From an uncultured Candidatus Saccharibacteria bacterium (GTDB lineage Bacteria > Patescibacteriota > Minisyncoccia > Phycocordibacterales > PALSA-1337): 64,000 bases of DNA. Shown one piece after another: positions 5,763-38,493 of the stretch. The number at the start of each line of letters is the position of its first letter. Positions within the stretch are counted from its first letter, which is position 1. The stretch is from assembly GCA_964495685.1 (NCBI GenBank), contig CAZBVQ010000003.1:4824-68823 (forward strand), read 5' to 3'. The translations under genes were made by a program, and so were the position numbers. Under the pieces are notes generated by a model. The model ran no database searches and had not been told where the DNA came from. It saw only the letters and a program-made list of their open reading frames with translations.

Positions 5763-5764
5763 AG

Positions 5765-6754: not shown

Positions 6755-6798
6755 ATCTACAACGAATTTGGCTTTTCTCCAATAGGGTGTTTACTGGT

Positions 6799-6828: not shown

Positions 6829-6830
6829 GT

Positions 6831-7103: not shown

Positions 7104-7108
7104 AAAAT

Positions 7109-9436: not shown

Positions 9437-10053
9437 TGAAAAAACTCCTCTCATTACTAATAATCACAAGTGTCCTAGTAATAGGGGTGTTTGGTTTTAC
9501 CTCGATGAATCATGGGACCAATCACACTACCGGTTGTATTGCCTCAGCCGTAGACAATACGCCATGTCCGGAAAACATCGCAGCAATGTCGGTCCACCAT
9601 ATACAGGCATTCGTTTCATTCTTCAGCGTGATCCCGTCAATTCCGTTTATCTTTCTGCTCGCATTTCTTTTGGCAGTATTTCTCAGCATAGGATTCGTTT
9701 ATATAAAACGACAGGATTCGCTCTTAGCTAATCTTGCATTTTGGCGAATTCAGCACGATCCTGAACGTGCCCTCACTCGCCCAAGTGAAATTACTCGCTG
9801 GCTTTCTCTATTTGAAAACAGTCCTTCGATGCATAGAATTTTCATTATCAATTCTAATCTCATAAATCTATGCAAACAAAAAAGTCTAAGGAAAATAAAA
9901 AACATAAAACTATCGATCCAGAAGTGGCATTCGATCTTGTCTGCGGAATGGAGCTTGATGCAGACGGCATTAAGGCAACTGCAGACTACAAAGGTAAGAC
10001 CTATTACTTTTGTGCTATCCACTGCAAGAATCACTTTACAGCCGATCCTGTGA
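9436..10053 (+). CDS. membrane protein. The N-terminal ~110 aa are credible (signal/TM helices); the 3' half overlaps the YHS ORF in another frame and is probably a spurious extension or a frameshift.
   Basis: N-terminus MKKLLSLLIITSVLVIGVFG...IPSIPFIFLLAFLLAVFLSIGF is membrane-like. The C-terminal portion is compositionally random and overlaps 9870-10070. Confidence 0.3.
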   Translation: MKKLLSLLIITSVLVIGVFGFTSMNHGTNHTTGCIASAVDNTPCPENIAAMSVHHIQAFVSFFSVIPSIPFIFLLAFLLAVFLSIGFVYIKRQDSLLANLAFWRIQHDPERALTRPSEITRWLSLFENSPSMHRIFIINSNLINLCKQKSLRKIKNIKLSIQKWHSILSAEWSLMQTALRQLQTTKVRPITFVLSTARITLQPIL

Positions 10054-10070
10054 AGTATGCCGGAGAGTAA
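9870..10070 (+). CDS. YHS-domain (TRASH-like) metal-binding protein
   Basis: DPVCGM-like (DLVCGM)...TYYFCAIHCKNHFTADP matches the YHS motif found next to copper ATPases. Confidence 0.7.
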   Translation: MQTKKSKENKKHKTIDPEVAFDLVCGMELDADGIKATADYKGKTYYFCAIHCKNHFTADPVKYAGE

Positions 10071-10092
10071 CTTATTAATCTAACTACAAAAT

Positions 10093-10734
10093 ATGAACAA
10101 CCAAAACAACAAAATATTATATGGAATCGGCGGAATTGTTATCGGAATTCTCCTTGTCTCAGTGCTCACTCCAATGTTTCGATATGGTGGATACGGAATG
10201 ATGAACTGGAGAAGTAACTCCGTATCGGACCAGAGAGTGAGTGGAAACACTCAGGTGGCCGGTACAATCGACAAGCACTTCATCGAGCAGATGATCCCTC
10301 ACCATGATGGAGCTATCGCTATGGCAAATCTTGCACTCCAGAAAGCTAAGCGTCCGGAGATTAAAACCTTGGCTACGGCTATCATTGCAGCTCAGACAAC
10401 GGAGATTCAAAGTATGAACGGCTGGTATCAGGACTGGTTCGGAAGTACTGTTCCGAAGGTAAGTACCGGAATGATGGGTGGAGGCATGATGTCACAGAGC
10501 GGAATGCACATGGGCGGACAGGAAGATATGACTGCACTAGAAAATGCATCTGATTTTGACGAGGCATTTATCGAAGAGATGATTCCTCATCATCAGTTGG
10601 CGATCATGATGGCAAATATGCTTCAGTCAGGGACCAACCGACCTGAGATGCAGCAGCTCGCAAAGAACATCATCTCATCTCAATCAAAAGAAATTCAGCA
10701 AATGCAGGCTTGGTATACCCAGTGGTACAAATAA
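10093..10734 (+). CDS. DUF305-family protein (two repeats of the MIPHHxxAIxMA motif), copper-resistance associated
   Basis: QMIPHHDGAIAMANLAL... and EMIPHHQLAIMMANMLQ repeats, with an N-terminal TM anchor. Confidence 0.8.
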   Translation: MNNQNNKILYGIGGIVIGILLVSVLTPMFRYGGYGMMNWRSNSVSDQRVSGNTQVAGTIDKHFIEQMIPHHDGAIAMANLALQKAKRPEIKTLATAIIAAQTTEIQSMNGWYQDWFGSTVPKVSTGMMGGGMMSQSGMHMGGQEDMTALENASDFDEAFIEEMIPHHQLAIMMANMLQSGTNRPEMQQLAKNIISSQSKEIQQMQAWYTQWYK

Positions 10735-10766
10735 ACTTATTAAAAAATAATTAAACATAAAAATAT

Positions 10767-10988
10767 ATGAAACTATCAAAAGTAATGCATGTAGGAAGTG
10801 TTATCACAGGTTTTGTTGGAGTAATAGTATTTATAGGAACACTCATCGGCGGTGGCGACAATCTAGTGTTTGGAATTACAAAAATGGATGCATTAGCGTG
10901 TTCTGCGATTCTTATCCTTATCGCCACATGGCTTCAGATCGCAACCATCCATCACATGATGCTTGAGAAAAAGGGAGAGATTGTGTAA
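10767..10988 (+). CDS. small membrane protein
   Basis: 73-aa ORF with two hydrophobic helices. Confidence 0.4.
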   Translation: MKLSKVMHVGSVITGFVGVIVFIGTLIGGGDNLVFGITKMDALACSAILILIATWLQIATIHHMMLEKKGEIV

Positions 10989-11009
10989 TCAAGAGAAATA
11001 TTATCAATC

Positions 11010-12029
11010 ATGAAAACACTAACCTTCCACGTACATGGCATGCACTGCAACGCTTGTGTGCTCATGACAGAAAGCGAGCTTGGAGACTTGCCTAATATCA
11101 CTCACGTTAAATCGAGCCTTAAGAATCATTCAGTAGAAGTTACCGGAGACTTTGGAGATAAGACACAGGAACAAATTGCTGAAGAACTTACTGTTCCACT
11201 GAAGCCTCATGGCTACACAGTCTCAGTAGAAAAACAACAGCACAATGCTAAATGGGGAGACTTCAAGATTGCAGTACCTATAGCACTCGGCTTTGCGGTG
11301 CTCTTTGTGGTGCTACAGAAAATGGGAATAGTAAATCTGGTCAGTGCTGGCAATGTAACCTACGGCACAGCATTTGTGATCGGCATCATTGCGTCACTTT
11401 CAACCTGCATGGCGGTCGTCGGCGGGCTGGTCCTCTCGATGTCTGCAACGTTTGCCAAAGAAGGTGACAAGATAAAACCTCAACTCATGTTCCATGGGGG
11501 CCGTATAGCCTCATTCTTTATTCTTGGTGGAGTGATAGGTGCAATAGGATCGGCGTTTACGCTCAACACCTCGGCAACATTTATCCTGAGCCTGATTATT
11601 GGCATCGTCATGCTCATTCTCGGTATTAATCTTCTCGATACATTCCACTGGGCCAAGAAACTTCAGCCGTCCATGCCGAAGTTCATTGCCAAGCATGCGC
11701 ATGGCGTTTCTAAATTCAATCACACGCTCACTCCACTCCTTGTAGGTGTCGCAACATTCTTCTTGCCGTGCGGATTCACTCAATCAATGCAGTTATATAC
11801 ACTTAGCACAGGAAGCTTTATCACCGGAGGTCTCACCATGCTGGCTTTCGCACTGGGTACACTGCCGGTCCTTGCACTCATTAGCTTCAGCTCGTTCAGT
11901 ATTCAAAAAAGTTCAAAGGCGGGAGTCTTCTTCAAGACAGCAGGATTGATCGTCATCATGTTTGCGCTCTTCAACCTCATTAATAGCTTGGTCGTGATTG
12001 GGGTTATACCACCAGTCTTTAATTTCTAG
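11010..12029 (+). CDS. HMA-domain (GMHCNAC) protein fused to a multi-helix membrane domain (DsbD/CcdA- or TauE-like)
   Basis: N-terminal heavy-metal-associated fold with an MxCxxC-type motif, followed by 6+ TM helices. Located in the copper cassette. Confidence 0.65.
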   Translation: MKTLTFHVHGMHCNACVLMTESELGDLPNITHVKSSLKNHSVEVTGDFGDKTQEQIAEELTVPLKPHGYTVSVEKQQHNAKWGDFKIAVPIALGFAVLFVVLQKMGIVNLVSAGNVTYGTAFVIGIIASLSTCMAVVGGLVLSMSATFAKEGDKIKPQLMFHGGRIASFFILGGVIGAIGSAFTLNTSATFILSLIIGIVMLILGINLLDTFHWAKKLQPSMPKFIAKHAHGVSKFNHTLTPLLVGVATFFLPCGFTQSMQLYTLSTGSFITGGLTMLAFALGTLPVLALISFSSFSIQKSSKAGVFFKTAGLIVIMFALFNLINSLVVIGVIPPVFNF

Positions 12030-12042
12030 TATAATTCCAATT

Positions 12043-12432
12043 ATGAAAGCAACTATTATTTCAGTCATTGTGGCAGTGGTCCTCATCGGGGGAGCTTTTA
12101 TGCTTACCAGAAGTGGTGGTGATACTGCACAAGTAGCAAATGCAAACAACGTTACTGTTGTAGACGGAAAACAAATCATAGAGATAAGTGCCAAAGGCGG
12201 TTATCAGCCACGAAAGAGTATTGCTAAGGCAGGTATCCCAACTGTCATCCGGTTCAACACAAAAGGAACCTTTGATTGCTCATCATCGGTCCGCATTCCA
12301 AGTATAGGTATAAGCAAATCGCTTCCACAGACAGGATCAACAGATATTGATATTGGAACTCAGAAAGTAGCAACCCTTCAGGGAACTTGCGGAATGGGAA
12401 TGTATCCTTTTGAGGTAGAGTTTCAGAGCTAG
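12043..12432 (+). CDS. cupredoxin-like (PF13473-type) copper-binding protein, TM-anchored
   Basis: QIIEISAKGGYQP...IRFNTKGTFDCSSS...TCGMGMYPFEVEF resembles single-domain cupredoxin_1 proteins of cop operons. Start chosen at the MKATII ATG. Confidence 0.55.
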   Translation: MKATIISVIVAVVLIGGAFMLTRSGGDTAQVANANNVTVVDGKQIIEISAKGGYQPRKSIAKAGIPTVIRFNTKGTFDCSSSVRIPSIGISKSLPQTGSTDIDIGTQKVATLQGTCGMGMYPFEVEFQS

Positions 12433-12439
12433 TTTTTGA

Positions 12440-13342
12440 TTAAGAAGACTTAGGATGAAACGAGTGTAAATTCTCAATGTGCTGAGAGGGTGTGATATCT
12501 GCGGTTTGGCAAACATATGAAAGCTTCCCAAGTATCAAATGAAGATTTTCTTCTGACAGTTTTGCGTCGGTATGTTTTTGAATGCATCCCACAATTTCTT
12601 CTGAGTGGACAACATTCTCAATTGACTCTGTCTTGAATTCACATGAGTCAGTAAATACAACTATGCTTCGGAAAGCATTCTCTGGAATAGACGGCATAAG
12701 TAACTTGAGAGACATAATATGGGACCAGTTTTGTCGTATAGGATTCTGAAATTGGAATTTGTTCTTTCCGCCAGGCAATGACTGAGTCCAATTATCTTGG
12801 TCCTTGTTGCCAAATATCCATCCTTTGTAATCCTTACTCTCGATTACGAAGATACCGAACTTTGATACAACCAAGTGGTCAATCTGAGACGATCCGTTGT
12901 GGTCCGAAGGGATGGTTAGGTTATTGAAGATAAAATAGTCTTTATAGCTCAAACCCTCAGCGAGGATATGTGCAATTTCTTGTTCTCCGTCAGTGAGTCC
13001 ATCCATATAGCATTTGCAACCATGCTTCTCACTGTTCACAGCTGCAACTTGGTCCTTACTTGCACCAGCTGGGATGTATAGATTATTAGAGATCGGACTT
13101 TTAGACCGGTTTTTAATTTTCCTGATTACCCAAACAATACCGCCAAGTATCAGACCCCAGACAAGTATCTTTCCTAGTATTCCTATAAAATTGCCAGATG
13201 TGATTGATGATATGGACCCGAGAAGAATAAATGCAGCTCCGATAATAAAGATCCCTTTTAATGGTTCGAAGGGTTGGCTGTAATTCCCGTAACGTCGTCG
13301 TCGGTAATAATATGGTTTTCGATAATTGCGGTAGTAGCTCAT
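12440..13342 (-). CDS. NERD (nuclease-related domain) protein with N-terminal TM segment
   Basis: SQIDHLVVSKFGIFVIESKDYKGWIFG is the NERD core motif. An N-terminal hydrophobic helix follows a Tyr/Arg-rich tail. Confidence 0.65.
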   Translation of the reverse strand: MSYYRNYRKPYYYRRRRYGNYSQPFEPLKGIFIIGAAFILLGSISSITSGNFIGILGKILVWGLILGGIVWVIRKIKNRSKSPISNNLYIPAGASKDQVAAVNSEKHGCKCYMDGLTDGEQEIAHILAEGLSYKDYFIFNNLTIPSDHNGSSQIDHLVVSKFGIFVIESKDYKGWIFGNKDQDNWTQSLPGGKNKFQFQNPIRQNWSHIMSLKLLMPSIPENAFRSIVVFTDSCEFKTESIENVVHSEEIVGCIQKHTDAKLSEENLHLILGKLSYVCQTADITPSQHIENLHSFHPKSS

Positions 13343-13433
13343 TGATTATTCTTGTTAAGACAATTATAACCGAAATCAGACAAATAGACTTAAATCAGAA
13401 ACCTTTATATAAAAGCAAAAATATGGTAAAACA

Positions 13434-13799
13434 ATGGAAAATATCATGACTCTAATAAAACAATTAATATTACAAACAATTGAACAAAATGATGGTCATT
13501 GTGACTGGAAAATAATTAAACCGAAAGTTGGTGCATATCACTTCGCACATAAGATCTCAATTCCAACGGATAAACAGATAACACATCAAGCTTATTTACT
13601 TGAGCAGGCTGGAGCTGTAGAGCGGATTGTAGAAATGCCAGTAGGTATTTTCTACAGAATTACTCCATGGGGCCACGCACTACTTGGGCCGTTACATAAA
13701 AGGATTGGTTATTTTCTCCTCTATAAAAAGAACAACCTCTTTGCTCTTAGTGCCTTAGTTATATCAATCATCTCTTTAATTTTTTCAATACTTAAATGA
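13434..13799 (+). CDS. hypothetical protein
   Basis: 121-aa ORF divergent from the NERD gene. C-terminal hydrophobic helix. Confidence 0.4.
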   Translation: MENIMTLIKQLILQTIEQNDGHCDWKIIKPKVGAYHFAHKISIPTDKQITHQAYLLEQAGAVERIVEMPVGIFYRITPWGHALLGPLHKRIGYFLLYKKNNLFALSALVISIISLIFSILK

Positions 13800-14986
13800 G
13801 GAGAGTAATTATCATACATCGCTGGGAGGGAGGATCACATGACGACTGGCGTCCATGGCTTAAATCTGAACTTGAAAAGATTGGGTATGAAGTACTTGTA
13901 CCTGATATGCCGGATACCAATACACCGGTGATTGAAAAATGGGTTTCAAAAATAAAAGAGGTTGTTGGTGAACCAGACGGAGACACTTATTTCATAGGGC
14001 ATTCAATTGGCTGCCAAGCCATTCTTAGATATTTGCAAACTGTAGATACTCCAGTAGGCGGAGCGGTGTTTGTGGCAGGTTGGTTTAATCTCAGTAACTT
14101 GGAATCTGATGAAGTAAAAGAAATTGCTAAGCCATGGATAGAAATGCCGATGGATATTGATAAGTTAAGGACTATCCTACACCGATCTACATTACTCATT
14201 TCTGACAATGATCCTTATGGTTACTTCGAGGAAAATAAGCAGAAGTTTGGAATGTTAAAGTCCGAAATGAAAATTATCCACAATGGAGGACACCTTACGG
14301 CAGAAGATGGGTATTCTGAATTTCCGCAGATTATCTCTGAACTGAAAAGCATTGTAATAAAGCAATATTTCCAAATCACAACTGACAGAATGTTTACAGC
14401 TCTGGAATCCTTTCATCTATGGAAAAAGATGAATATGCTAATGAATGTAAATGAAGTTGGTCCAGAAGTTGCACAGAAGAATGTCGATATTTTTAGGAAG
14501 CACTGGGATTTTTTCCATCCGGTCATGGCTGGGGCTTATAAAATGTTTATTATTGATCTTTCAATCTTTTTCGATGCTGAAAAATATGAAGACACGTTTT
14601 CGCTGCATAAGCTTGTTGAGTCTATAAAGGAAAATATCAGTGAATCCGAGTATAAGGACCTGCTTCAAAAAATAAAAGATATAAAGAAAAAACATGGACC
14701 AGCAATTAACCTCCTTCTTACCTTAAGAAATAGTGATGTTGCTCATCAGAAGATGGAGAAGAAAAAGCGCCTTATCATCTATAAAGAGATTGAGGATTTA
14801 TTTATTGGTGTTCAAGAAATCCTCAATCTTTTGAGCAAATACTTTAATGGAGCCTATACCATGTGGGATCATGTAGGTAAAAATGTCGAGCATGGGACCG
14901 AGTGGGTAATGGAAAATTTGGAAAGGGGAGAAAAGGATAGATTAAAAGAGATCGAGGAAAAGTATAAAGTTGATCTGGGTGCTTAA
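13796..14986 (+). CDS. YdeN/RBBP9-family serine hydrolase (aa 1-190) fused to a ~200-aa C-terminal HEPN-like domain
   Basis: The N-terminus aligns well to B. subtilis YdeN (IIIHRWEGGSHDDWRPWL..., nucleophile in GHSIG, ...IIHNGGHL). The C-terminal extension contains R311-x5-H317 (LRNSDVAHQK) in a predicted helical context. Confidence 0.6.
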   Translation: MRRVIIIHRWEGGSHDDWRPWLKSELEKIGYEVLVPDMPDTNTPVIEKWVSKIKEVVGEPDGDTYFIGHSIGCQAILRYLQTVDTPVGGAVFVAGWFNLSNLESDEVKEIAKPWIEMPMDIDKLRTILHRSTLLISDNDPYGYFEENKQKFGMLKSEMKIIHNGGHLTAEDGYSEFPQIISELKSIVIKQYFQITTDRMFTALESFHLWKKMNMLMNVNEVGPEVAQKNVDIFRKHWDFFHPVMAGAYKMFIIDLSIFFDAEKYEDTFSLHKLVESIKENISESEYKDLLQKIKDIKKKHGPAINLLLTLRNSDVAHQKMEKKKRLIIYKEIEDLFIGVQEILNLLSKYFNGAYTMWDHVGKNVEHGTEWVMENLERGEKDRLKEIEEKYKVDLGA

Positions 14987-15105
14987 GCGAAACCAATAGA
15001 TAAGCGTTCTTTTTCGACCTTTTTTGCCCTATTTCACCCTATTTGCCCTAACGCTAGGCCAGATTAGGCCGAAAAGAGCCGAAAAGAGCCAAAATTACCC
15101 AAGAA

Positions 15106-15196
15106 CTGCTATACTTTGCATGTCAGGAATGTAGATCGTCGCATCATTCCTTTTCTCAAATATAGTTCTAACTTCCTCTACGACGGCACCCCACGC
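15106..15196 (+). repeat. ~90-bp direct repeat, copy A (contains hairpin AGGAATGtagatcgtcgcatCATTCCT)
   Basis: About 85% identical to copy B at 15802-15890. The two copies flank ORF 15236-15799. Confidence 0.7.
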
Positions 15197-15235
15197 TTAG
15201 AATAGGGCTTCATTAGGAGGCGGTGGTATTTTCTA

Positions 15236-15799
15236 TTGTGTTATAATTTCATTATGAAAAATTTTTCCACACTTATTTTCCTTTTGACTCTTATAATGTT
15301 GGGTATTTTTGGTTACTTGAAAATATTTAACGAAGCGGGAAACTCATTTAACTATTGGTACATACTAATCTTTGCGGTTGCGTATTTTGTTATTTGGGCA
15401 TGTGTACCTTTGGCTGAAGGGTTGCAAAGGAGGGGACGAATTAGAATGTTCGAAGACATTTCCCACAAATATGGTCTGAAACATGAATTCACTAAACTCC
15501 GATACCTCAATTCTTATGGCGAATTCAACAAACTCTCTGGTACATATAAAAATCATTCCGTTCTTATCAGGGATGTACATGATAAGCCGAAGGCGTGGCA
15601 TGGGGCGACAAGTCAAATACCCATAAAGGGAGTCGCGCTATCTTTTGGTCCACAGAAGACCCTGTACGCAATAGACGGTGAAGAAAAGCGTTTTCCACAG
15701 GAGCTTAATAATCTCAAACAGATATTTGATCCAAAATCAGGATATGCCAGCAAAGAACAGATAGTTACTGCACTTGAAGGATCAGCTTTTTTGTCCTAA
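15236..15799 (+). CDS. hypothetical membrane protein (2 N-terminal TM helices + cytoplasmic domain)
   Basis: 187-aa ORF, AT-rich. Flanked by the 90-bp direct repeats. Confidence 0.5.
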   Translation: MCYNFIMKNFSTLIFLLTLIMLGIFGYLKIFNEAGNSFNYWYILIFAVAYFVIWACVPLAEGLQRRGRIRMFEDISHKYGLKHEFTKLRYLNSYGEFNKLSGTYKNHSVLIRDVHDKPKAWHGATSQIPIKGVALSFGPQKTLYAIDGEEKRFPQELNNLKQIFDPKSGYASKEQIVTALEGSAFLS

Positions 15800-15801
15800 A
15801 A

Positions 15802-15890
15802 CTGCCTACTTTGCATATTAGGAATGTAAATCGTCGCGTCATTCCTTCTCTCGAAAATAGTTCTAACATCCTCTACGGCGGCACCCCACG
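15802..15890 (+). repeat. ~90-bp direct repeat, copy B
   Basis: ctgcctactttgcatattaggaatgtaaatcgtcgcgtcattccttctctcgaaaatagttctaacatcctctacggcggcaccccacg matches copy A. Confidence 0.7.
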
Positions 15891-16083
15891 TGAGAGAATT
15901 AGTTCAAAAAAATCATGGCTTGGCCCTATTTCATTGACCCTCAGAAAACAAAGATGGATCTAAAAAATTCATCCAAATTTTTCAGGTATTTTCTAGTGCC
16001 TCTTTTAGTAATAATACTGGCGACCACGGTAATAAGAATGATGACTATGTAGACGGGGTAGGGGAATCAGGTTGTCGCACCCA

Positions 16084-24992: not shown

Positions 24993-25367
24993 ATGAACCT
25001 ATATGTCATTGAATGGTCGACCGAGCGACGACCAGAAATCAAACGCTTGTGTCGTCTGTTGGGTAAGATTCCGGGCCTGAATCTTGTCGCCACAAAAGAA
25101 AAAGCTGAAGTGGCCCTTGTGGTTCTCGATGAAAGTGGTACTGGTGGGGTGTTCGATGCCCTAGATCACTTCCGAGAAAATCGTCCCGTATGGTGTCTCT
25201 GTCCGCACCAGGCTGAATTGAACAGCAACCTCGCTGCCCGGCTCCACAAACAGGAATCGAATCACGCTAGCCCACTTCTGGCTGTCCTCAGATTTGAATT
25301 TATTCCGGAAGCGGCAAAAATCGTCAAAGGACTTGTTGTTCTGAATCGGAGGCTAGGGTCTGTATAG
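24993..25367 (+). CDS. hypothetical protein
   Basis: 124-aa ORF. No motif recognised. Confidence 0.4.
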   Translation: MNLYVIEWSTERRPEIKRLCRLLGKIPGLNLVATKEKAEVALVVLDESGTGGVFDALDHFRENRPVWCLCPHQAELNSNLAARLHKQESNHASPLLAVLRFEFIPEAAKIVKGLVVLNRRLGSV

Positions 25368-25431
25368 CTGCTGTCCAGTTTCAGGATCAATTTCACGCCA
25401 AGGCGACCCCTTGGCTTTTTTGTACTCGAAT

Positions 25432-25947
25432 TTACTGCGTAGCTGGTGTGCCACTGTGGTCGACTTTGTATTCCAGAAGAAGTGTCCCTGTCTCTGATTG
25501 CGCGGTACTTACGAGAGTGAGTTTGTGGGTTAGGTCTTCAGTGAATAGTGATATACCTTTGCCAAACACGAGAGGCTCAATGGTTAGGAACAGTCGGTCG
25601 ACGACATTGGCCTTCATGAACATGGTGTAAATTTTGGAGCCGCCGCAGATGGCGACTTCTTTGAAACCGCGACTTTCAAGTTCAGCCAGTAAATCGACAG
25701 GAGATTTTTGCGTTGTCTCAGCACCTTCGAATTTCTTGTCACGGGTATAGACGATGTTGATGCGTTCCTTGAGTGGGCGGGGGAGTGTGGCGTACGTGGT
25801 CGAACCCATAACAACTACACCAGCACGCTTGGTCAGCTCCACGAAACGTTTCTTGTCCTCTTTGCTGGTCCAGAAAGCCGAATGTTTCTCATCGCGTGCG
25901 ATGAATCCATCGGCGGTAACGGCGGCTATGATGTATGCGCGAATCAT
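25432..25947 (-). CDS. dihydrofolate reductase-family protein (RibD C-terminal/DHFR-like)
   Basis: MIRAYIIAAVTADGFIARDEKHSAFWTSKEDKKRFVELTKRAGVVVMGSTTY pattern. Last gene of the thyA-dcd operon. Confidence 0.6.
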   Translation of the reverse strand: MIRAYIIAAVTADGFIARDEKHSAFWTSKEDKKRFVELTKRAGVVVMGSTTYATLPRPLKERINIVYTRDKKFEGAETTQKSPVDLLAELESRGFKEVAICGGSKIYTMFMKANVVDRLFLTIEPLVFGKGISLFTEDLTHKLTLVSTAQSETGTLLLEYKVDHSGTPATQ

Positions 25948-25953
25948 GGATTA

Positions 25954-26586
25954 CTACTGTACTTTGAACTGTTCCTTGAGTGTCTTGATATCACCCTTGG
26001 CGAGCAGATCTACTTCTTCTTTCTTCTCCATCTGCACTCCCTCGATAATATCTTTTTGGTGATACTTACTCGGGCGCGGCGTGACCGGATGTTTGAGCTC
26101 TTCGAATGCGACTTGGCAGAGACGTTCTCCAGGATAGAGACGGATGGCTTGTGAGCGGGTATTGTTGCGGATAGGGAGAATAAGCTGACCTTCATAGCCT
26201 GCATCGATCACGCCAGTGAGGTCGAGCGATAAGCCCTTGCGGTTGGTAGATGAGCGAGGGTAGAGGACTGCCATAAGGTCGGTAGGCATTTTGATGGCCT
26301 CGAGAGTGGAAACAAGGATGTATTCTTGCGGCAGGAGCTCGAAATATTGGCCCTGCTCGAGTTCGACAACCTCGAAATATTCATGGTTGCGCTTGTCGAA
26401 GTGGGTAATATCGAGTGACTCACGACCCTTGGCAGTCATGTGCCACATCTTGGGGATCATGAACGTGAAGCCGAGACGTAGATCAACGGAGTGTTCTTGG
26501 AGCTGGAATTTGTCGAGGTTTGGCTTGAAGCTGAGTGAGCCTGAAGTGACGCGTTCGAGGATATCAATTTTAGTTATTATAGACAT
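25954..26586 (-). CDS. dcd: dCTP deaminase family (Dcd; possibly bifunctional dCTP deaminase/dUTPase)
   Basis: Motifs DLRLG, YPRSSTNRKGL, IDAGYEGQLIL, CQVAF. Confidence 0.85.
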   Translation of the reverse strand: MSIITKIDILERVTSGSLSFKPNLDKFQLQEHSVDLRLGFTFMIPKMWHMTAKGRESLDITHFDKRNHEYFEVVELEQGQYFELLPQEYILVSTLEAIKMPTDLMAVLYPRSSTNRKGLSLDLTGVIDAGYEGQLILPIRNNTRSQAIRLYPGERLCQVAFEELKHPVTPRPSKYHQKDIIEGVQMEKKEEVDLLAKGDIKTLKEQFKVQ

Positions 26587-26626
26587 GAGGGTAAATCAAA
26601 ACGTAAAAATCAAAATTCAAAAATAA

Positions 26627-27463
26627 TCACAACGCAATCTTGAGGCCAGTGATGGCATCCATGGGATTATACTGCTTCGTGAGGTTTTCTACCACTTGGT
26701 CAGCAAACTCTTTGTCCATCTTTTCGGCTTTCTCGAATGCATTATCAGGGAGCTCGAGTCGGACTGGTGCATGTTCATGCTCACGACGCATGATTTCTTC
26801 GGCGCCAGCATAGTGGTTGCTATAAATGTGGGCATTTGAAATAGAGTGAGAGTAAATACCTGGTCTGACTCCCAATTTTTGGGCAAGGATACATTGGAGG
26901 AGCGCAAATCCGGCGACATCAGCAGGGGTGCCGAGTATGACGTCGTTTGAGCGAACAATATTGTGTAGATGGAGACGTCCCCCGATGATGTTGACCGTGA
27001 ATGTGTAGGGACACGGCACGTTCTTCTTTTTTGCTAGGGACAAGCCATCTTGGGCAGGATCCCATGTCACGATGACGCCCTGTCGTGAGCTCGGTTCTTT
27101 CTGGAGAAGGTCGATGAGTAGGGCGATTTGATCACGACCAAAATGCTTGCGCCAGCGATATCCGTAGGCGACTGTCACTACGTCGTTGGGGTTGGTGAAA
27201 AGATCCCAGATCTTGGTGTAATCGCGCAAAAAAATCTCAGGCTTGCGTGCACCAGAGAGAAACCAGACTTGCTCTGCGACGAACATCTTGATGGGAATTT
27301 TGCGGAGTGTGAGGATAGGGAAGCCGTCCTTCTCAATGTCGGTGGTGAAATGCATACCAGGAATGGCCTTTGTGTCATAGCCAGTGCGCTCACTGAACTC
27401 ATGAATGCCGGTGGTCATAATATCACTCACCATCTTTTTGTATATCTCGTCAAACGTTGTCAT
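26627..27463 (-). CDS. thymidylate synthase (ThyA) family enzyme with Asp at the Asn177-equivalent substrate-specificity position (predicted pyrimidine-C5 (hydroxy)methylase acting on dCMP)
   Basis: VWFLSG, catalytic Cys in VPCPYTF (aligns to PCH), RSNDVILGTPADVAGFALL (aligns to RSCDVFLGLPFNIASYALL), HIYSNH. Asp182 codon at 26918-26920. Confidence 0.8.
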   Translation of the reverse strand: MTTFDEIYKKMVSDIMTTGIHEFSERTGYDTKAIPGMHFTTDIEKDGFPILTLRKIPIKMFVAEQVWFLSGARKPEIFLRDYTKIWDLFTNPNDVVTVAYGYRWRKHFGRDQIALLIDLLQKEPSSRQGVIVTWDPAQDGLSLAKKKNVPCPYTFTVNIIGGRLHLHNIVRSNDVILGTPADVAGFALLQCILAQKLGVRPGIYSHSISNAHIYSNHYAGAEEIMRREHEHAPVRLELPDNAFEKAEKMDKEFADQVVENLTKQYNPMDAITGLKIAL

Positions 27464-27532
27464 TGCCTGTTAATTATATATAATCAAGCTACGAATGAAC
27501 ATGTTGCCGATTGTGCGATTTCGTATCCAAAT

Positions 27533-28048
27533 ATGAAAATTGATTATCCATACCTTCCTGAAGGGAGAACCATCAAACATGTTCCTGTCACCAACGTTTT
27601 TATGGCTGAGGCTAAGCGAGTGAGGGCTGAACTTTCAACAGAGAAAAATTATCCGACTGGTGCAGTCATTGTGAAGGATTCCAAGATACTCGGTCGAGCA
27701 GGCAATCAGGCGGCACTCAAAAATAAAACCCTCCAAGAATTCCATCGTACAAAGTTGTGTCTGCGTAAAGTGTTCAAGATACCTTCGGGTCAAAAATATT
27801 GGGTCTGCCCAGGTTGTGCGAAATATCAACACCATGCTGAGTGGGGAGCGGTCCGAGATGCTATCAAGCGGATAGGAAATATTGCTGGTGCAGACTTGTA
27901 CCTATATGGCCACTGGTGGTGCTGCAAACCGTGCTGGAGGAGCATGATCGATGCGGGTGTTCGAGATGTGTATCTTGTCGAAGGAGCTTTCGAATTATTC
28001 GAAAAGCGATCGCATGTAGTAGCTGAGGCGACCAAGAACAATACATAA
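27533..28048 (+). CDS. dCMP/CMP deaminase (zinc-dependent, ComEB-like)
   Basis: HAE...PCxxC motifs (HAEWGAV; CCKPCWRSM). Start trimmed to the MKIDYPY Met; the longer ORF start is antisense to thyA. Confidence 0.75.
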   Translation: MKIDYPYLPEGRTIKHVPVTNVFMAEAKRVRAELSTEKNYPTGAVIVKDSKILGRAGNQAALKNKTLQEFHRTKLCLRKVFKIPSGQKYWVCPGCAKYQHHAEWGAVRDAIKRIGNIAGADLYLYGHWWCCKPCWRSMIDAGVRDVYLVEGAFELFEKRSHVVAEATKNNT

Positions 28049-28049
28049 T

Positions 28050-28469
28050 ATGAAACTTCTCATCAAAAAACTCAAGCCCGATGCCAAGTTGCCCTCATAC
28101 GCTCATCCAGGTGATGTTGGTTTGGATCTCTATTCACTAGAGGACAAACTGCTCAATCCTGGTGAGCGTCATATTTTTTTCGTGGGATTTGCCCTGGAAT
28201 TTCCGACCGGCTATGCTGCTATTGTGAAGGACAAAGGCGGTACTTCGAAGAATGGTTTGCATACAGCCGGTGGGGTGTACGATGCGGGGTATCGTGGTGA
28301 ATATAACGTCAATCTGGTGAATCTGAGTGACAAACCATATCAAGTCCATACAGGTGATAAGATCGCCCAGCTCGTTATTTTCCCAGTCGCTATTGCTGAG
28401 CTCGAAGAAGTGTCGGCTTTGAATGATTCATCGCGTGGAGAGGGACGATTCGGTAGTACGGGACGATAA
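28050..28469 (+). CDS. dut: dUTP pyrophosphatase
   Basis: Motifs GDVGLDL, GVYDAGYRGE, DKIAQLVI, RGEGRFGSTG. Confidence 0.85.
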   Translation: MKLLIKKLKPDAKLPSYAHPGDVGLDLYSLEDKLLNPGERHIFFVGFALEFPTGYAAIVKDKGGTSKNGLHTAGGVYDAGYRGEYNVNLVNLSDKPYQVHTGDKIAQLVIFPVAIAELEEVSALNDSSRGEGRFGSTGR

Positions 28470-28478
28470 TATATCATC

Positions 28479-29132
28479 ATGCTTTCACCATTCCTGCTGA
28501 CAAAAAGTAAACCGCCGTTCATCGTCATTGAAGGCGGTGAGGGCTCGGGTAAATCATCGGTCTTGATGGCGCTCAAAGAAGAGCTGGGTGATCGTATTTT
28601 CACCACCCGCGAGCCGGGTGGTTCGCCCTATGCCGAAGTTATCCGCGATGTGACTTTGAAAAATCCACTGGCCAAAGGGACTCCTGCCGAAACAACCCTC
28701 TGCCTCATGTTCGCATCACGTTTCGATAATACGAGCCGTTCTATAGTTCCTGCACTGAAGGCTGGTACGCCTGTCATCGCTGATCGTTTCGATGCTTCTT
28801 CATTTGCGTACAATGTAGGTGCCCAATCTCGCGGCGCCCTCGAAGGGTTGTTCTGGAAACTTCGTGAACGTCTCGAAGTCAAACCGGACCTCTATATTTT
28901 CTTTGATGTTGATCCCCGTGAAGGTCTCCGCCGCGCTCAGTCGCGCAACCAATCATTGTTGCAGGGCAAACAATATGACCATTTCGATGATCGAGAGGTC
29001 GAGTTCCACGAAAAAGTCAGAGAAGGATACATGAAATTTTTCCAGAAAGTGCCGCACATGATCATTGATGCCAATCAGCCGCTCGATGAGGTCAAAAAGG
29101 CGTTCCGAGAGGAGATTCTTGCTAGAATTTAG
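28479..29132 (+). CDS. tmk: thymidylate kinase
   Basis: P-loop IVIEGGEGSGKSS, then TREPGG...DRF. Confidence 0.9.
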   Translation: MLSPFLLTKSKPPFIVIEGGEGSGKSSVLMALKEELGDRIFTTREPGGSPYAEVIRDVTLKNPLAKGTPAETTLCLMFASRFDNTSRSIVPALKAGTPVIADRFDASSFAYNVGAQSRGALEGLFWKLRERLEVKPDLYIFFDVDPREGLRRAQSRNQSLLQGKQYDHFDDREVEFHEKVREGYMKFFQKVPHMIIDANQPLDEVKKAFREEILARI

Positions 29133-29239: not shown

Positions 29240-29455
29240 GTGGACTCTAATGTTCACAAAAAATGGGCGTGTGAGAGGGTTTGAATTCAAGGCCACAAAA
29301 AAACTTTCGCGGCTGAGAAGTACACAATTCTCTCCACCCCAGTTCTTTCCACCGCGCTCCGTCGCAGTGGTCGTTCCGAGGGTCTTTGCCGAGAGGCATA
29401 CCCCGTTTATGGTGGGGTCCGTCGTTGCCCAGGTGGGTGGCGACGGACTTTTTTG
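29240..29455 (+). promoter_or_regulatory. structured non-coding leader or small RNA ending in a strong intrinsic terminator (gtccgtcg-N16-cgacggac-TTTTTT at 29417-29455), upstream of glyA
   Basis: tmk ends at 29132, so the terminator 320 nt downstream is not its own. An upstream tccgtcgc copy (29344) can compete for the terminator's 3' arm. The ORFs here are not protein-like. Confidence 0.3.
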
Positions 29456-29613
29456 TTGCCCAGATTTTCTTTCGTGCTAGAATGCGAATACGACTAACTA
29501 ACATGCTTACCACAACCTACAAATCAACGTGGTCTTCATTTGCATAATTACGGTGAATTACCTGCGGTGTGATTCGGTTCGTGGTTCATTATTCACCATT
29601 CACTATTCATTCT

Positions 29614-30810
29614 ATGAAAGACACACAGATCAAAAAACTCATCGATGCTGAGAAGAAGCGTCAAAAGAGCGTCATCAATCTTATCGCCTCAGAGAACGTT
29701 GTTTCATCAGATGTACTCGAAGCGCTCGGTTCGGAATTGACCAACAAGTACGCAGAAGGGTATCCGCGTGCACGTTATTATGGCGGCAACCAAGTCGTCG
29801 ACAAGATCGAAGAGCTTTGCAAAGAGCGCGCACTCACATTATTCGGCCTTTCGGCAGATGAATGGCATGTCAATGTCCAGCCTCTGTCAGGGTCACCAGC
29901 CAATCTGGCTGTATATGTCGCTCTAGTCCCTCAAGGTGGCAAGATTATGGGTATGTCACTCGATCATGGTGGTCATCTCACTCACGGTCACAAAGTTTCG
30001 GCTACGGGCAAATTCTGGACCCAGGTACCGTATGGTCTCGACAAAGATACTGAGCTCATCAATTACGGGGCACTCAAGGAGCTCGCTCTTCGAGAGAGGC
30101 CAGCCATCATCGTCGGTGGCTACACGGCGTATACGCGTGTCGTTGATTTCAAGAAATTGCGCGAAATAGCTGACGCATGCGGAGCGTTGCTCATGATCGA
30201 CATGTCTCATTTCGCTGGTCTCGTCGCAGGCAAGGCTTATCCATCACCATTCGCGTACGCTGATGTGGTCACCACAACTGTACACAAGACACTCCGTGGT
30301 CCTCGTAGCGCACTTATTTTTTCCAAGAAAGATACGCGTGATCTTCCCAAGAAAATAGACAAAGCAGTTTTCCCGGGATTGCAGGGAGGCCCACACCTCA
30401 ATCAGATTGCCGCTGTCGCTGTGGCGCTCAAAGAAGCTGCCGCTCCCGCATTCAAGAAATATGCAGTGCAGGTCAAGAAGAACGCTGCAGTACTTGCCCA
30501 AGAATTGAGCAACAAAGGATGGAAAATTATTTCCGGAGGCACAGACTCACATCTGGTGCTTGTCGATACTTGGATGGGGGGCCAGAAAAATGCCAAGGGT
30601 GCCGGGGCCATTCCTGGCAAGATCGCTAGTGATGCACTTGAGAAGGCCGGCATCATTGTAAACAAGAACGCTATTCCTTTTGATGCTCGTCCGCCGGCAG
30701 ATCCTTCCGGTATCCGTCTCGGTTCAGCCGCAGAGACGACGAGGGGTAAAAAAGAAAAAGATTTCAAGAAAATCGCTGAGAAGATAGATGCGGTGCTCAA
30801 AAGGCTGTGA
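29614..30810 (+). CDS. glyA: serine hydroxymethyltransferase
   Basis: KRQKSVINLIASENVVSSDVLEALGSELTNKYAEGYP and PLP-Lys region. Start at the MKDTQIK Met. Confidence 0.9.
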   Translation: MKDTQIKKLIDAEKKRQKSVINLIASENVVSSDVLEALGSELTNKYAEGYPRARYYGGNQVVDKIEELCKERALTLFGLSADEWHVNVQPLSGSPANLAVYVALVPQGGKIMGMSLDHGGHLTHGHKVSATGKFWTQVPYGLDKDTELINYGALKELALRERPAIIVGGYTAYTRVVDFKKLREIADACGALLMIDMSHFAGLVAGKAYPSPFAYADVVTTTVHKTLRGPRSALIFSKKDTRDLPKKIDKAVFPGLQGGPHLNQIAAVAVALKEAAAPAFKKYAVQVKKNAAVLAQELSNKGWKIISGGTDSHLVLVDTWMGGQKNAKGAGAIPGKIASDALEKAGIIVNKNAIPFDARPPADPSGIRLGSAAETTRGKKEKDFKKIAEKIDAVLKRL

Positions 30811-34842: not shown

Positions 34843-37800
34843 ATGACTGACCCTATCAACCCAGAACAAAAAGCTATCACCAAATCTCCTCATGCTGAGC
34901 GCGAGGAGCGTATTCTTGCCCGCTGGAAAGAGAAGGGCATTTTCGAGCAGACACTCAAGCAGACTGAGGGCAAGAAAGAATTTATTTTCTATGAAGGTCC
35001 GCCAACTGCCAATGGTCGTCCTGGTATTCATCATCTCGAAGCACGCGCTTTCAAGGACGCGATTCCGCGTTACAAAACCATGCAAGGATTCCACGTGCGT
35101 CGCAAAGGAGGATGGGATACACATGGTCTGCCAGTCGAAATCCAAGTTGAGAAGGAGTTGGGCCTCAAGTCCAAGAAGGAAGTCGAGTCTTACGGCATCG
35201 AGCGTTTCAATGAGAAGTGCAAAGAAAGTGTCTGGAAATATGTCCATGAATGGGAAGGCTTCACTGAGCGCATGGGGTATTGGGTTGATCTCAAAGATCC
35301 GTACATTACCTACAAGTCTTCGTACATCGAGTCTTTGTGGAATATCATGAAGACAGTCGACAAGAAGGGATTGCTCTACAAGGATTACAAAGTCGTACCC
35401 TGGTGTCCGCGCTGTGGCACTGGTCTTTCGTCGCATGAATTGGCGCAGGGCTATCAGGACGTTAAGGATTTGGCGGTGACGGTGAAGTTCAAGGTCACAA
35501 ACGGAAAAGAAAAACTGGGCTCCACAGATGATATATATTTGCTTGCATGGACAACTACACCATGGACCTTACCAGGGAACGTTGGGTTAGCTGTTGGAAA
35601 AAAACAAAAAGGAATTACTTACAAACTGGTCTTTCTTGAACCGGACATTGCCAAAGTTGTTATCGGCAAAGGACAATCTGGTCAGTATGAATCCCCAAAC
35701 GGTTTTTTTGCAGAAGAAGTTGAAAAATTTAATAAAGAACATAAAGGAAAAGCATATCTCGTAACATCCCAATATAACTTTTCTGAAAAATTAAAGCCCC
35801 CATTTCCTATTAAAGAAAATCTTCTCCTAACAGATCTTACCGAGAATCAACTAATCGGCCTCACCTACGAACCCCTCTATTCGTTTTTGAAAGACAACAT
35901 TTCTGGTGCCGAAAAAGAAAAACTTTCCAATGCATACAAAGTATATGCGGCTGATTTTGTCACGACGACCGATGGTACTGGGATAGTTCACACTGCGGTT
36001 ATGTATGGTCAGGAGGATTTTGAGTTGGGAACACAGGTTGGTTTGCCGAAATATCACCTCGTCAATGATGATGGAACCTTCAAGAAAGAGGCCGGATTCC
36101 TTGCAGGCAGATTCGTGAAAGATGAAGCCGTCGCTATCGACATCATCAAAGATCTCGCCAGTCGCCCAACAGGCAGCTTGTTGTTCCACAAAGAGAAGCA
36201 CGAGCACAGCTACCCATTCTGTTGGCGTTGCAAGACTCCACTCATCTATTTTGCCCGCGATTCGTGGTATATCCGCATGTCTTCATTGCGTGACAACCTA
36301 GTCAAAGAGAATGAGAGCATCAACTGGGTGCCCGCCCATATCAAAGAAGGTCGTTTTGGTGAATGGCTCCGCGAAGTCAAAGATTGGGCCATTTCCCGCG
36401 AGCGTTACTGGGGAACACCACTTCCTGTCTGGGTTTGTGATGGGTGTCATGAGCGCAAAGTAGTTGGTTCTGTCGCCGAAATTGCACAGAAGTCGAAAAA
36501 CATGTATTTCGGTATTCGACACGGCGAAGCTGAGCAGAATGTACATAATATTCTGAACGGTGACCCAAGTAAGCACTATCATTTGACTGAGAAGGGCAAG
36601 AAAGAGGTTACGGATTCCGTTAAGTCATTCAAACAGAAGATTGATGTTATTTACGCCTCGCCATTGCTTCGTACCAAGGAGACTGCCGAAATTGCGGCAG
36701 GTATTTTGGGCGTGCCGGCATCTTCCATTTTCTATGATGAACGTTTGCGTGAAATGGGCATGGGCGAGCTCGAAGGGAAGAATGTGAGCGAGCTTAACGG
36801 ATTGGTTGATGTTCCAGAAAAACTCTTCACTACCTCGGTCAGAGGTGTTGAGACACGACTGGAGATCAAGAGACGCGTTGGCACATTCATCGAAGAGATT
36901 GAACAGAAGCATGTTGGTAAGACTATTTTGGTTGTCAGTCATGATAGTCCATTGTGGATGCTCGAGAGTGCTGCCACAGGCCTCGATACCACCCAGGCTC
37001 TTGCACTCAAAGCAGGTAAGTCATTTTTCATGGATAATGCCGAAGTTAGAAAAATTGATTACTCGATAGTTCCACACAACGCTGACTTCGAACTTGATCT
37101 GCATCGCCCATACATTGATACAGTGAAGATTCCGTGCGCATGTGGCGGGACAATGACACGTGTCAAAGAAGTTATGGATGTGTGGTTTGATTCTGGCGCT
37201 ATGCCTTTTGCGCAGGATCATTATCCGTTCGAACACAAAGAACTAGTAGATAGTGGTTTGTTCAAGAAAGCTCACGGCTATCCCGCTGATTTTATTTCTG
37301 AGGCCATCGATCAGACACGTGGCTGGTTCTATACATTGCACGCTATTGGTGTGTTGATGGGCAAGGGCAAGGCATTCAAGAACGTTATCTGTCTCGGTCA
37401 CATTCTCGATGGAGAGGGCAAGAAAATGTCGAAATCTCTCGGCAATATCGTCGACCCATGGAGCATGATGGACAAATACGGCGCTGACGCACTGCGTTTC
37501 TGGATGTACTCTGTCAATCAGCCGGGGGATTCGAAAAACTTTGATGAGAAGACAGTCGATGAAATGGTCAAAAAAGTATTCAATTTAGCGGCAAATGTGT
37601 TGTCGTTCTATCAGATGTATGCGGAGAAGTCGGCAGTTGCAAGTAACACGTTGCAAGTCACATCGCGTAACATTTTGGATCGATGGATTATTTCGAGACT
37701 TGATCAGGTGATCGAGACAGTCACCAAAGGCTTGGACTCATATGTATTTCTTGAGCCGACGCGTTCGGTACGTGATTTTATTGCAGACCTCTCACAATGG

Positions 37801-38493
37801 TATTTACGCCGCTCGCGTGACCGATTCAAGTCAGAAGATGTCCAAGACAAACAAGCTGCACTAGCGACGACCCGCTACATTCTAGTAACACTCGCCAAAG
37901 TTATGGCGCCGTTCACACCATTTTTTGCAGATTATCTGTACCAGGAAGCAGGTGGAGATCTCGAGAGTGTTCATTTGGAGAAGTGGCCGGTCGCAGGGAA
38001 GATCGATACGCAGCTCATCACAGATATGGCACACGTCCGCACCGCATGCTCCAAAGGTTTGGAGGCTCGTACACGTGCCAAGATCAACGTACGTCAGCCG
38101 CTGGCAAAGTTGTATATAAAGACCGGTATTGCCGACAAACTCTCACCCGAACTTCTCGGTCTGATCGAAGATGAAGTTAATGTCAAGGGAGTCGCTATCA
38201 GCGTGTCTATTGATTCCGAGGTGCAGCTCGATACCGTCATCACTCCCGCTCTCAAAGAAGAGGGCATGGTCCGTGAATTGATGCGCCTTATTCAGGATCT
38301 CCGCAAAGCCAAGGGTCTCAGTGTGGGTGATCGGGCAGTCTTGAATGTGGAGACAGATGGCGCGGGCAGGAAAGTTATCGACACCAATGCTACACAAATC
38401 AAAACCGCCTGCGGTATTTCTGAAATCCGCTACGGCACTGTTGCTGGTGACACGACCATGATCGCAGAGATGCCGTTCAAGCTTGGCTTGTAA
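34843..38493 (+). CDS. ileS: isoleucyl-tRNA synthetase (type 2) with an inserted histidine-phosphatase (PGAM-like) domain (~aa 545-745)
   Basis: PPTANGRPGIHH (HIGH), KMSKSLGN and DWAISRERYWGTPLPVWVCDGC; then the insert FGIRHGEAEQN...ILVVSHDSPLWM; then HRPYIDTVKIPCACGGTMTRVKEVMDVWFDSGAMPF. Confidence 0.95.
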   Translation: MTDPINPEQKAITKSPHAEREERILARWKEKGIFEQTLKQTEGKKEFIFYEGPPTANGRPGIHHLEARAFKDAIPRYKTMQGFHVRRKGGWDTHGLPVEIQVEKELGLKSKKEVESYGIERFNEKCKESVWKYVHEWEGFTERMGYWVDLKDPYITYKSSYIESLWNIMKTVDKKGLLYKDYKVVPWCPRCGTGLSSHELAQGYQDVKDLAVTVKFKVTNGKEKLGSTDDIYLLAWTTTPWTLPGNVGLAVGKKQKGITYKLVFLEPDIAKVVIGKGQSGQYESPNGFFAEEVEKFNKEHKGKAYLVTSQYNFSEKLKPPFPIKENLLLTDLTENQLIGLTYEPLYSFLKDNISGAEKEKLSNAYKVYAADFVTTTDGTGIVHTAVMYGQEDFELGTQVGLPKYHLVNDDGTFKKEAGFLAGRFVKDEAVAIDIIKDLASRPTGSLLFHKEKHEHSYPFCWRCKTPLIYFARDSWYIRMSSLRDNLVKENESINWVPAHIKEGRFGEWLREVKDWAISRERYWGTPLPVWVCDGCHERKVVGSVAEIAQKSKNMYFGIRHGEAEQNVHNILNGDPSKHYHLTEKGKKEVTDSVKSFKQKIDVIYASPLLRTKETAEIAAGILGVPASSIFYDERLREMGMGELEGKNVSELNGLVDVPEKLFTTSVRGVETRLEIKRRVGTFIEEIEQKHVGKTILVVSHDSPLWMLESAATGLDTTQALALKAGKSFFMDNAEVRKIDYSIVPHNADFELDLHRPYIDTVKIPCACGGTMTRVKEVMDVWFDSGAMPFAQDHYPFEHKELVDSGLFKKAHGYPADFISEAIDQTRGWFYTLHAIGVLMGKGKAFKNVICLGHILDGEGKKMSKSLGNIVDPWSMMDKYGADALRFWMYSVNQPGDSKNFDEKTVDEMVKKVFNLAANVLSFYQMYAEKSAVASNTLQVTSRNILDRWIISRLDQVIETVTKGLDSYVFLEPTRSVRDFIADLSQWYLRRSRDRFKSEDVQDKQAALATTRYILVTLAKVMAPFTPFFADYLYQEAGGDLESVHLEKWPVAGKIDTQLITDMAHVRTACSKGLEARTRAKINVRQPLAKLYIKTGIADKLSPELLGLIEDEVNVKGVAISVSIDSEVQLDTVITPALKEEGMVRELMRLIQDLRKAKGLSVGDRAVLNVETDGAGRKVIDTNATQIKTACGISEIRYGTVAGDTTMIAEMPFKLGL

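Follow-up and report, generated by a model that had tools for sequence, protein, structure and literature searches.

A ThyA homolog of predicted dCMP specificity in a housekeeping gene cluster of Patescibacteria, and a possible thymidylate route in which methylation precedes deamination

What does a thymidylate synthase (TS) homolog make when the Asn that specifies dUMP is replaced by Asp, and does its product enter modified DNA or thymidylate? The question is raised by a cluster of deoxynucleotide genes in a stretch of 64,000 nucleotides, here called the window (assembly GCA_964495685.1, contig CAZBVQ010000003.1, positions 4,824 to 68,823), from an uncultured Candidatus Saccharibacteria bacterium. 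On the minus strand of this cluster a ThyA homolog, a protein of the dCTP deaminase (DCD)/dUTPase fold and a dihydrofolate reductase (DHFR) are encoded, while the divergent plus-strand operon encodes a PF00383 zinc deaminase, a dUTPase and a dTMP kinase (Tmk) (Table 1). The reading that we favour, with a probability of about 0.55, is a thymidylate route of swapped order, in which a reductive dCMP C5-methylase of the type found in phage Xp12 would act before deamination, as a housekeeping pathway of the lineage. The module as such is already known in phages; its fixation as a cellular housekeeping cluster and the DCD homolog lacking the catalytic Glu that accompanies it appear to be undescribed in the literature searched.

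The ThyA homolog matches PF00303 with E = 7.1e-53 over profile positions 2-252 of 266. A first-pass annotation, made by a model from the letters alone, had read Asp at the position of E. coli Asn177 and had predicted from it a dCMP-directed C5-methylase or hydroxymethylase. Pairwise HMMER alignments to solved structures place LGTPADVAGF over LGVPFNIASY, multiple alignments agree, and the alignment with ThyA, T4 gp42 and Xp12 that had been proposed as a check equally puts Asp182, not Asn, at the specificity position. The catalytic Cys is retained as annotated (Cys151, corresponding to Cys146), and the RSxD and H-x-Y motifs are conserved. In TS, Gln165 orients Asn177, as described for the L. casei enzyme. 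In the window protein the canonical trio of the dUMP-specific TS, Asn177, Gln165 and His147 (E. coli numbering here and below), is replaced by Asp, Val and Pro, so that the active-site signature string reads EYCPVRDDNHY, compared with EYCPLRDDHHY in Xp12 and EYCHQRDNDHY in E. coli.

These replacements recur in the Patescibacteria examined. A scan of species-representative genomes found a relative in 231 genomes, and all counts over 80 species given here refer to the best 80 of these 231. The best 80 are all Patescibacteria (candidate phyla radiation, CPR) and include Taylor-, Adler-, Kaiser-, Nomura- and Campbellbacteria, Paceibacterota and Minisyncoccia; the window shows 96% identity to a metagenome-assembled genome (MAG) of Ca. 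Taylorbacteria. Relative to E. coli ThyA, N177 is Asp, W83 is Phe, L143 is Asn and D205 is Asn in 80/80 orthologs, Q165 is Val, Ile or Met in 80/80, and H147 is Pro in 77/80; in addition, the window protein has a 4-residue insertion before the catalytic loop. Position 143 was read from an L-INS-i alignment and by ungapped anchoring on the catalytic Cys. Asp182 is no sequencing accident, for Asp occupies the specificity position in 80/80 orthologs and, among the 150 cluster representatives nearest to the window protein, in 125. On the other hand, the fold, the catalytic and the phosphate- and deoxyribose-binding residues, the reductive tail and the linkage to DHFR and serine hydroxymethyltransferase (SHMT) are shared with the canonical ThyA of E. 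coli and L. casei. C146, E58, Y94, R21, R126, R166, S167, D169, H207 and Y209 are conserved in 79-80 of the 80 orthologs and in the window protein, with D169 kept in all 80, and the CPR orthologs possess a TS-like hydrophobic C-terminal tail (...GLKIAL).

Published work gives these positions a meaning. No two positions separate cytosine-modified from unmodified phage contigs better than 177 and 147 (PMC8670742), Asp is conserved at the specificity position in the cytosine-using enzymes MilA, BcmA and T4 CH (PMC5175136), and the rule has been formulated that N177D stands for dCMP as substrate (PMC13326640). Most directly, the TS homolog of Xp12 and five of seven metagenomic Asp-type enzymes gave 5-methyldeoxycytidine (5mdC) in E. 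coli in the presence of T4 gp1 (bioRxiv 10.1101/2024.12.05.627091).

Among the reference enzymes the window protein is closest to that of Xp12. Its identity is 35% to the Xp12 TS homolog (about 33-35%), 29% to E. coli ThyA and 22% to T4 gp42, the BLOSUM distances are 0.65, 0.77 and 0.89, respectively, and BLASTP against the Xp12 protein gives E = 4e-56. Asp177, Pro147, Phe83 and Asn143 as well as the absence of Gln165 (Leu in Xp12) are common to both proteins, as are the motifs AYGYRWR-[KR]HFGRDQ and WDPAxDGL...KNVPCP, the latter containing the 4-residue insertion; they differ in the C-terminal tail, which is longer and TS-like in the window protein, and at position 205 (Asn versus His in Xp12). 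More than 2,200 homologs were found at E < 1e-10, of which the top 120 (70-94% identity, 263-304 aa, mostly 278 aa) derive from Patescibacteria MAGs and are named 'thymidylate synthase' wherever the source gives a name. When 1.84 billion cluster representatives were searched exhaustively with HMMER, 127 proteins matched at E < 1e-30. Among the 150 top-ranking representatives, 125 possess Asp177 and 20 Asn177, the first Asn-type protein appearing at about rank 73; Asn177 occurs solely alongside His147 (20/20), while Asp177 is paired with Pro147 in 97 proteins and mostly with an aliphatic residue in the remainder. In a neighbour-joining tree the smallest clade that holds both the window protein and Xp12 comprises 90 leaves, all of Asp type, with the Asn/His proteins separate. 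Taken together, the Xp12-like residues, the all-Asp clade and the 35% identity to Xp12 support the prediction of a dCMP-directed reductive C5-methylase. Natural fusions of Asp-type TS homologs join them to a PF00383 deaminase (P0143), a PRA-PH/MazG-type pyrophosphohydrolase (P0183) or an HNH endonuclease (P0154).

Parts of the gene neighbourhood are conserved as well. A divergent PF00383 deaminase lies within 400 bp upstream of the TS gene in 79/80 CPR loci, and in 74/74 of those loci whose upstream sequence extends for 700 bp or more. The DCD-like gene lies no more than 3 kb from the TS gene in 77 of the 80 species, SHMT is linked in 64, DHFR in 63, Tmk in 41 and dUTPase in only 24, and FolD is present in some loci. 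In phages, a comparable pairing is known: of the PF00383 deaminases encoded on modified contigs, 70% have a TS gene within 3 kb, and deamination of 5-methyl-dC nucleotides by the enzymes encoded in cis has been proposed to bypass the dUMP thymidylate synthase (bioRxiv 10.1101/2024.12.05.627091). The window cluster resembles these pairs of Asp177-type TS and mSCD deaminase (bioRxiv 10.1101/2024.12.05.627091; PMC8670742) in having the two genes within 3 kb of each other; however, the phage pairs are viral and tied to DNA with 5-methylcytosine (5mC) in place of cytosine, whereas the window cluster lies on the chromosome of a bacterium and includes an ordinary dTMP kinase. Among viral loci with an Asp/Pro-type TS a deaminase was present within 3 kb in 11/11, compared with 0/48 for viral Asn177 homologs; the latter are of the D143/N147/N177 type rather than canonical TS and hence constitute a weaker control. 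These 48 proteins (IMG/VR, L104-L151) share Asp143, Cys146, Asn147, Asn177 and the motif ...RSNDI.WG.YGANAVH, and by published rules they are predicted to be dUMP hydroxymethylases. In Xp12 itself the TS homolog, a protein of the dCMP deaminase family and DHFR are encoded in one operon (MT664984 44377-46195). The best phage match, Ruegeria phage Tedan (36%), has the TS gene followed by a deaminase gene and N143 and P147 as in CPR. The PF00383 deaminase next to the TS gene and the DHFR homolog are thus common to Xp12 and the window cluster. The latter differs in being a chromosomal housekeeping cluster of cellular organisms, at least 80 species of one lineage, in the divergent transcription of the deaminase gene, and in the addition of the DCD-fold protein without Glu, SHMT, Tmk and dUTPase.

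The DCD-like protein had been annotated as dCTP deaminase. This label is weakened: the protein passes the cutoff of TIGR02274, yet Pro replaces the catalytic Glu138 both here and in 75/75 orthologs. With Dcd and the bifunctional Dcd:dUTPases (E. coli 1xs1, M. tuberculosis 2qlp, B. halodurans 4xjc) it has the fold and the family model in common, and S111, R115 and D128 of Dcd are kept; besides the Glu138 replacement, it differs from these enzymes by a dUTPase-like Tyr in an IDAGY motif and by an Asp, invariant in the orthologs, at the position of Dcd His121 or Dut Asn84. Because the catalytic Glu is lost, the protein is probably no deaminase by the known mechanism. It is a candidate dCTP pyrophosphatase yielding dCMP, and throughout Patescibacteria the deaminase annotation of this gene is probably wrong. 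The T4 dCTPase gp56 was considered as a model for this protein and rejected, as it is non-homologous (16% identity, no common motifs).

The family of the deaminase comprises 787 proteins, is specific to CPR and has almost no phage relatives; a search for such relatives gave two weak matches only. His101, Glu103, Cys131 and Cys134 are invariant in the family, and a further invariant set, His71, Cys76, Cys92 and Cys95, suggests a second, structural zinc site. The AlphaFold (AF2) model has a pLDDT of 89, and the top PDB folds retrieved with Foldseek are the dCMP deaminases of cyanophage S-TIM5, S. mutans, human, T4 and PBCV-1. We predict that the enzyme acts on 5-methyl-dCMP or 5-methyl-dCTP. An N-terminal YPYLPEGR motif is conserved in the family, the members of which are labelled inconsistently by annotation pipelines as dCMP deaminase, 'deaminase' or TadA. 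As for the remaining enzymes, the DHFR has T. maritima DHFR (1cz3, E = 4.8e-29) as best PDB match and is homologous to the DHFR-like gene product of Xp12 (E = 5e-11); it is a true DHFR, which would recycle the dihydrofolate (DHF) from reductive methylation. Tmk can be aligned ungapped to TMKs of solved structure, the F/R segment that binds the base being retained, and is an ordinary dTMP kinase.

From these parts a pathway can be assembled. The DCD-fold protein would convert dCTP to dCMP and feed the pathway; the ThyA homolog of Asp177/Pro147 type would use methylene-tetrahydrofolate (methylene-THF) to convert dCMP to 5-methyl-dCMP with release of DHF; the divergently paired deaminase would turn the 5-methylcytosine nucleotide into a thymine nucleotide, in the simplest form 5-methyl-dCMP into dTMP; and Tmk would phosphorylate dTMP to dTDP. 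DHFR and SHMT, together with FolD in some genomes, would close the folate cycle, SHMT regenerating methylene-THF. The textbook order, deamination followed by methylation, would thereby be reversed, with methylation coming first. The substrate preference of the ThyA homolog, the substrate of the deaminase and the phosphorylation level on which it acts, and the activity of the DCD-like protein are what we infer here, as is thymidylate rather than 5mC-containing DNA as main output. Thymidylate is the likeliest output because the deaminase is invariant, Tmk is ordinary and the phage module has been proposed to make thymidine nucleotides. The suggestion of the first-pass annotation that the cluster serves DNA modification rather than dTMP synthesis finds no support in view of the invariant deaminase partner and the ordinary dTMP kinase within the cluster.

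The net stoichiometry of the swapped-order route equals that of the conventional one, so gene content cannot separate the two orders of steps, and the case for methylation first therefore rests on the active-site signature and the homology to validated enzymes. Could the ThyA homolog then be an ordinary dUMP-methylating TS that tolerates Asp through compensating changes, with the deaminase as a normal dCMP deaminase supplying dUMP? The deaminase, TS, DHFR, SHMT, dUTPase and Tmk do constitute a full conventional thymidylate cycle, all catalytic residues and the C-terminal tail are TS-like, the gene is apparently the sole TS of its neighbourhood, published CPR studies treat it as thyA, and the TIGR03284 thymidylate synthase model is passed with 126 bits (cutoff 108). 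The other five TS equivalog models of NCBIfam out of six (NF0024xx/NF010393) are, however, missed by far, with 69-147 bits against cutoffs of 325-576. Moreover, the natural Asp177 enzymes of known substrate, T4 gp42, MilA, BcmA, Xp12 and the five metagenomic phage enzymes, all use cytosine nucleotides, the mutations N177D/N229D are cited in PMC8670742 and PMC13326640 as shifting TS toward dCMP, and Gln165 is gone in every one of the 80 species with His147 lost also, which makes an ordinary TS an unlikely, though by no means negligible, explanation. A dCMP methylase whose product is incorporated in bulk, so that chromosomal 5mC replaces most or all cytosine and thymidine is drawn from the same pool by deamination, is considered rather improbable. 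The phage module of Asp-type TS and deaminase, in part with DHFR, does accompany complete replacement of C by 5mC, and the DCD-fold protein without Glu could clear dCTP, a function analogous to that of the PRA-PH/MazG domains which phage Asp-type TS carry as fusions (P0183) or have encoded nearby. Nevertheless, there is no evident 5-methyl-dCMP kinase, the kinase of the cluster looking like a standard dTMP kinase, and for a cellular genome full replacement would be without precedent. The MetaGPA papers, which select cytosine-modified DNA from filtered fractions, mention no CPR-like contigs, and a literature search of partly poor framing found no report of bulk 5mC in CPR DNA. Equally, the searchable literature, under the same limit of framing, yielded no work that links a dCMP methylase, an Asp-type TS or a 5mC genome to CPR/Patescibacteria.

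A hydroxymethylase of the T4 gp42 or MilA type, the second option left by the first-pass annotation, or another C5 variant that makes 5-hydroxymethyl- or 5-hydroxy-dCMP, would equally be compatible with Asp177, which together with a residue other than His after the catalytic Cys is common to T4 gp42 and MilA/BcmA. Hydroxymethylases are, however, devoid of the TS C-terminal segment, release THF and need no DHFR (PMC5175136), and gp42 in particular is without the tail and has Asp at position 143. The window protein possesses the tail, is linked to a genuine DHFR, is only 22% identical to gp42 and lies outside the gp42 group in the tree. According to published rules a hydrophobic residue at position 143 favours the methyl product and Asp or Glu the hydroxymethyl product, while D169N marks 5-hydroxy-dCMP synthases (PMC13326640). 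Position 143 is Asn, as in Xp12, and not Asp or Glu; D169 is retained, and the protein is therefore not a 5-hydroxy-dCMP synthase of the RB69 gp48 type. The CMP hydroxymethylases MilA and BcmA have Ala at the position of S167 to accommodate ribose, where the window protein keeps Ser167. Methylation is thus preferred over hydroxymethylation because of the genuine DHFR, the TS-type tail and the Asn143 common with Xp12, and the hydroxylated products are very improbable. Finally, an origin of the cluster from a prophage, or from a phage contig binned wrongly, can be regarded as effectively refuted. The nearest relatives outside Patescibacteria (42-45% identity; P0123, P0127) do occur in phage-like contexts, in each case with the deaminase gene directly downstream, and a serine recombinase is located beside tRNA genes about 20 kb away in the window. 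Still, the cluster is flanked by nusG and rplK just upstream and by glyA (SHMT), with argS, ileS, metG and ftsK elsewhere in the window; its GC content is even and the same as that of the surrounding sequence; and 80 species have the cluster arranged in this way next to these housekeeping genes, on contigs that reach 686 kb. As the best relative among 2.9 million viral contigs, searched with a single-protein query, is just 38% identical, misbinning of phage DNA does not account for the CPR family.

Several points weigh against the swapped-order route itself. The specificity of the cellular clade is deduced from residues and about 35% identity to one validated enzyme, two of the seven phage Asp-type enzymes gave no 5mdC (bioRxiv 10.1101/2024.12.05.627091), and the neighbour-joining tree that unites the window protein with Xp12 carries no support values. 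The gene set fits the conventional sequence from dCMP via deaminase to dUMP and via TS to dTMP equally well, and a strictly dCMP-specific TS would leave dUMP from the dUTPase of the cluster without a consumer. The match of the deaminase fold to dCMP deaminases is moderate (TM 0.45-0.6), with TadA and guanine deaminase close behind, and the similarity to the Xp12 deaminase is weak (E = 0.008). The deaminase mSCD-B5, which converts 5-methyl-dCTP (5mdCTP) to dTTP, needs triphosphates (bioRxiv 10.1101/2024.12.05.627091), so that deamination at the monophosphate level is an assumption here. The search for a separate thyA or thyX, which the first-pass annotation had envisaged for the genome, was of local scope: no second TS or ThyX was found in the window and 1.32 Mb of CPR flanks by tblastn with E. 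coli ThyA, gp42 and T. maritima ThyX and with the RHR(7)S motif, and the absence of another thymidylate synthase is established only at this scale.

If methylation does come first, a large and widespread bacterial lineage would make its thymidylate starting from cytosine and not from dUMP, by a route so far described only in phages, and 5-methyl-dCMP would be a normal cellular metabolite in this lineage of Patescibacteria. Thousands of Patescibacteria database entries would then carry a wrong label, 'thymidylate synthase' or 'dCTP deaminase', and the metabolism reconstructed for these organisms would have to be revised. The finding also suggests flow of core-pathway genes between phages and ultra-small hosts. 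Were bulk cellular 5mC to be true, Paceibacterota/Parcubacteria (Taylor-, Adler-, Kaiser-, Nomura- and Campbellbacteria) would be in a state known only from phages such as Xp12, with effects on restriction biology, mutation spectra and methylation-aware sequencing of environmental DNA. The cluster might further provide cellular sources of dCMP methylases and possibly of 5mC-selective deaminases, which are of biotechnological interest.

Table 1. Genes, key codons and putative signals of the deoxynucleotide cluster (positions in the window).
Feature	Position	Strand	Evidence or remark
DHFR gene	25432-25947	minus	PF00186 E = 1.9e-18; 171 aa
DCD/dUTPase-fold protein gene	25954-26586	minus	TIGR02274 115 bits, above cutoff
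Pro138 codon CCT of the DCD-fold gene, equivalent to catalytic Glu138 of E. coli Dcd	26173-26175	minus	
ThyA homolog of Asp177/Pro147 type, 278 aa	26627-27463	minus	PF00303 E = 7e-53
Asp182 codon GAT, equivalent to the pyrimidine-specificity position Asn177 of E. coli	26918-26920	minus	
Active-site loop K-N-V-P-C-P of the ThyA homolog	27008-27025	minus	Asn148 = L143, catalytic Cys151 = C146, Pro152 = H147
Near-consensus sigma-70-like promoter TTGTCA-16-TATAAT	27457-27484	plus	11/12 matches; consensus match only
PF00383 zinc deaminase, 171 aa	27533-28048	plus	PF00383 E = 1.5e-11
Deaminase zinc motifs HAE and CKPC	27833-27841 (HAE), 27923-27934 (CKPC)	plus	both invariant
Canonical trimeric dUTPase with C-terminal motif V	28050-28469	plus	TIGR00576 115.6 bits, above cutoff
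dTMP kinase (Tmk)	28479-29132	plus	TIGR00041 126.6 bits, above cutoff
Intrinsic-terminator-like hairpin closing the deaminase-dut-tmk operon	29414-29451	plus	17-pair stem, then T run
SHMT (glyA)	29569-30810	plus	PF00464 E = 1.4e-154

The six open reading frames (ORFs) that had been placed in two divergent operons were recovered at the same coordinates with Pfam and NCBIfam models of the families named, and the cluster extends beyond them into glyA, the true start of which is probably the ATG near 29614. The sigma-70-like promoter in the divergent intergenic region of 69 bp is directed into the deaminase-dut-tmk operon. Between rplK and the DHFR gene, a 124-aa ORF (24993-25367, plus strand) has no Pfam match and is followed by a terminator-like hairpin at 25397-25415.

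Elsewhere in the window, the gene of a large serine recombinase on the minus strand (2966-4561) lies next to a tRNA cluster and shares its last nucleotides with tRNA-His (2904-2977; whole region 2050-4561). It is followed by a stretch of lower GC content from about 4000 to 16000 (0.38-0.44 versus about 0.48 elsewhere), which contains a heavy-metal P-type ATPase (7109-9436); recombinase and low-GC stretch may represent an integrated element. Two adjacent paralogs of about 610 aa (57025-58854 and 59603-61444, plus strand) possess an N-terminal peptidoglycan-binding domain (PG_binding_1), the remainder being without family match. The isoleucyl-tRNA synthetase (34843-38493, plus strand; 1216 aa) harbours a histidine-phosphatase domain (PF00300 His_Phos_1) as an insert at residues 558-740 between the halves of the catalytic domain, an arrangement also present in a related 675-kb Paceibacterota contig (L005 1-2246).

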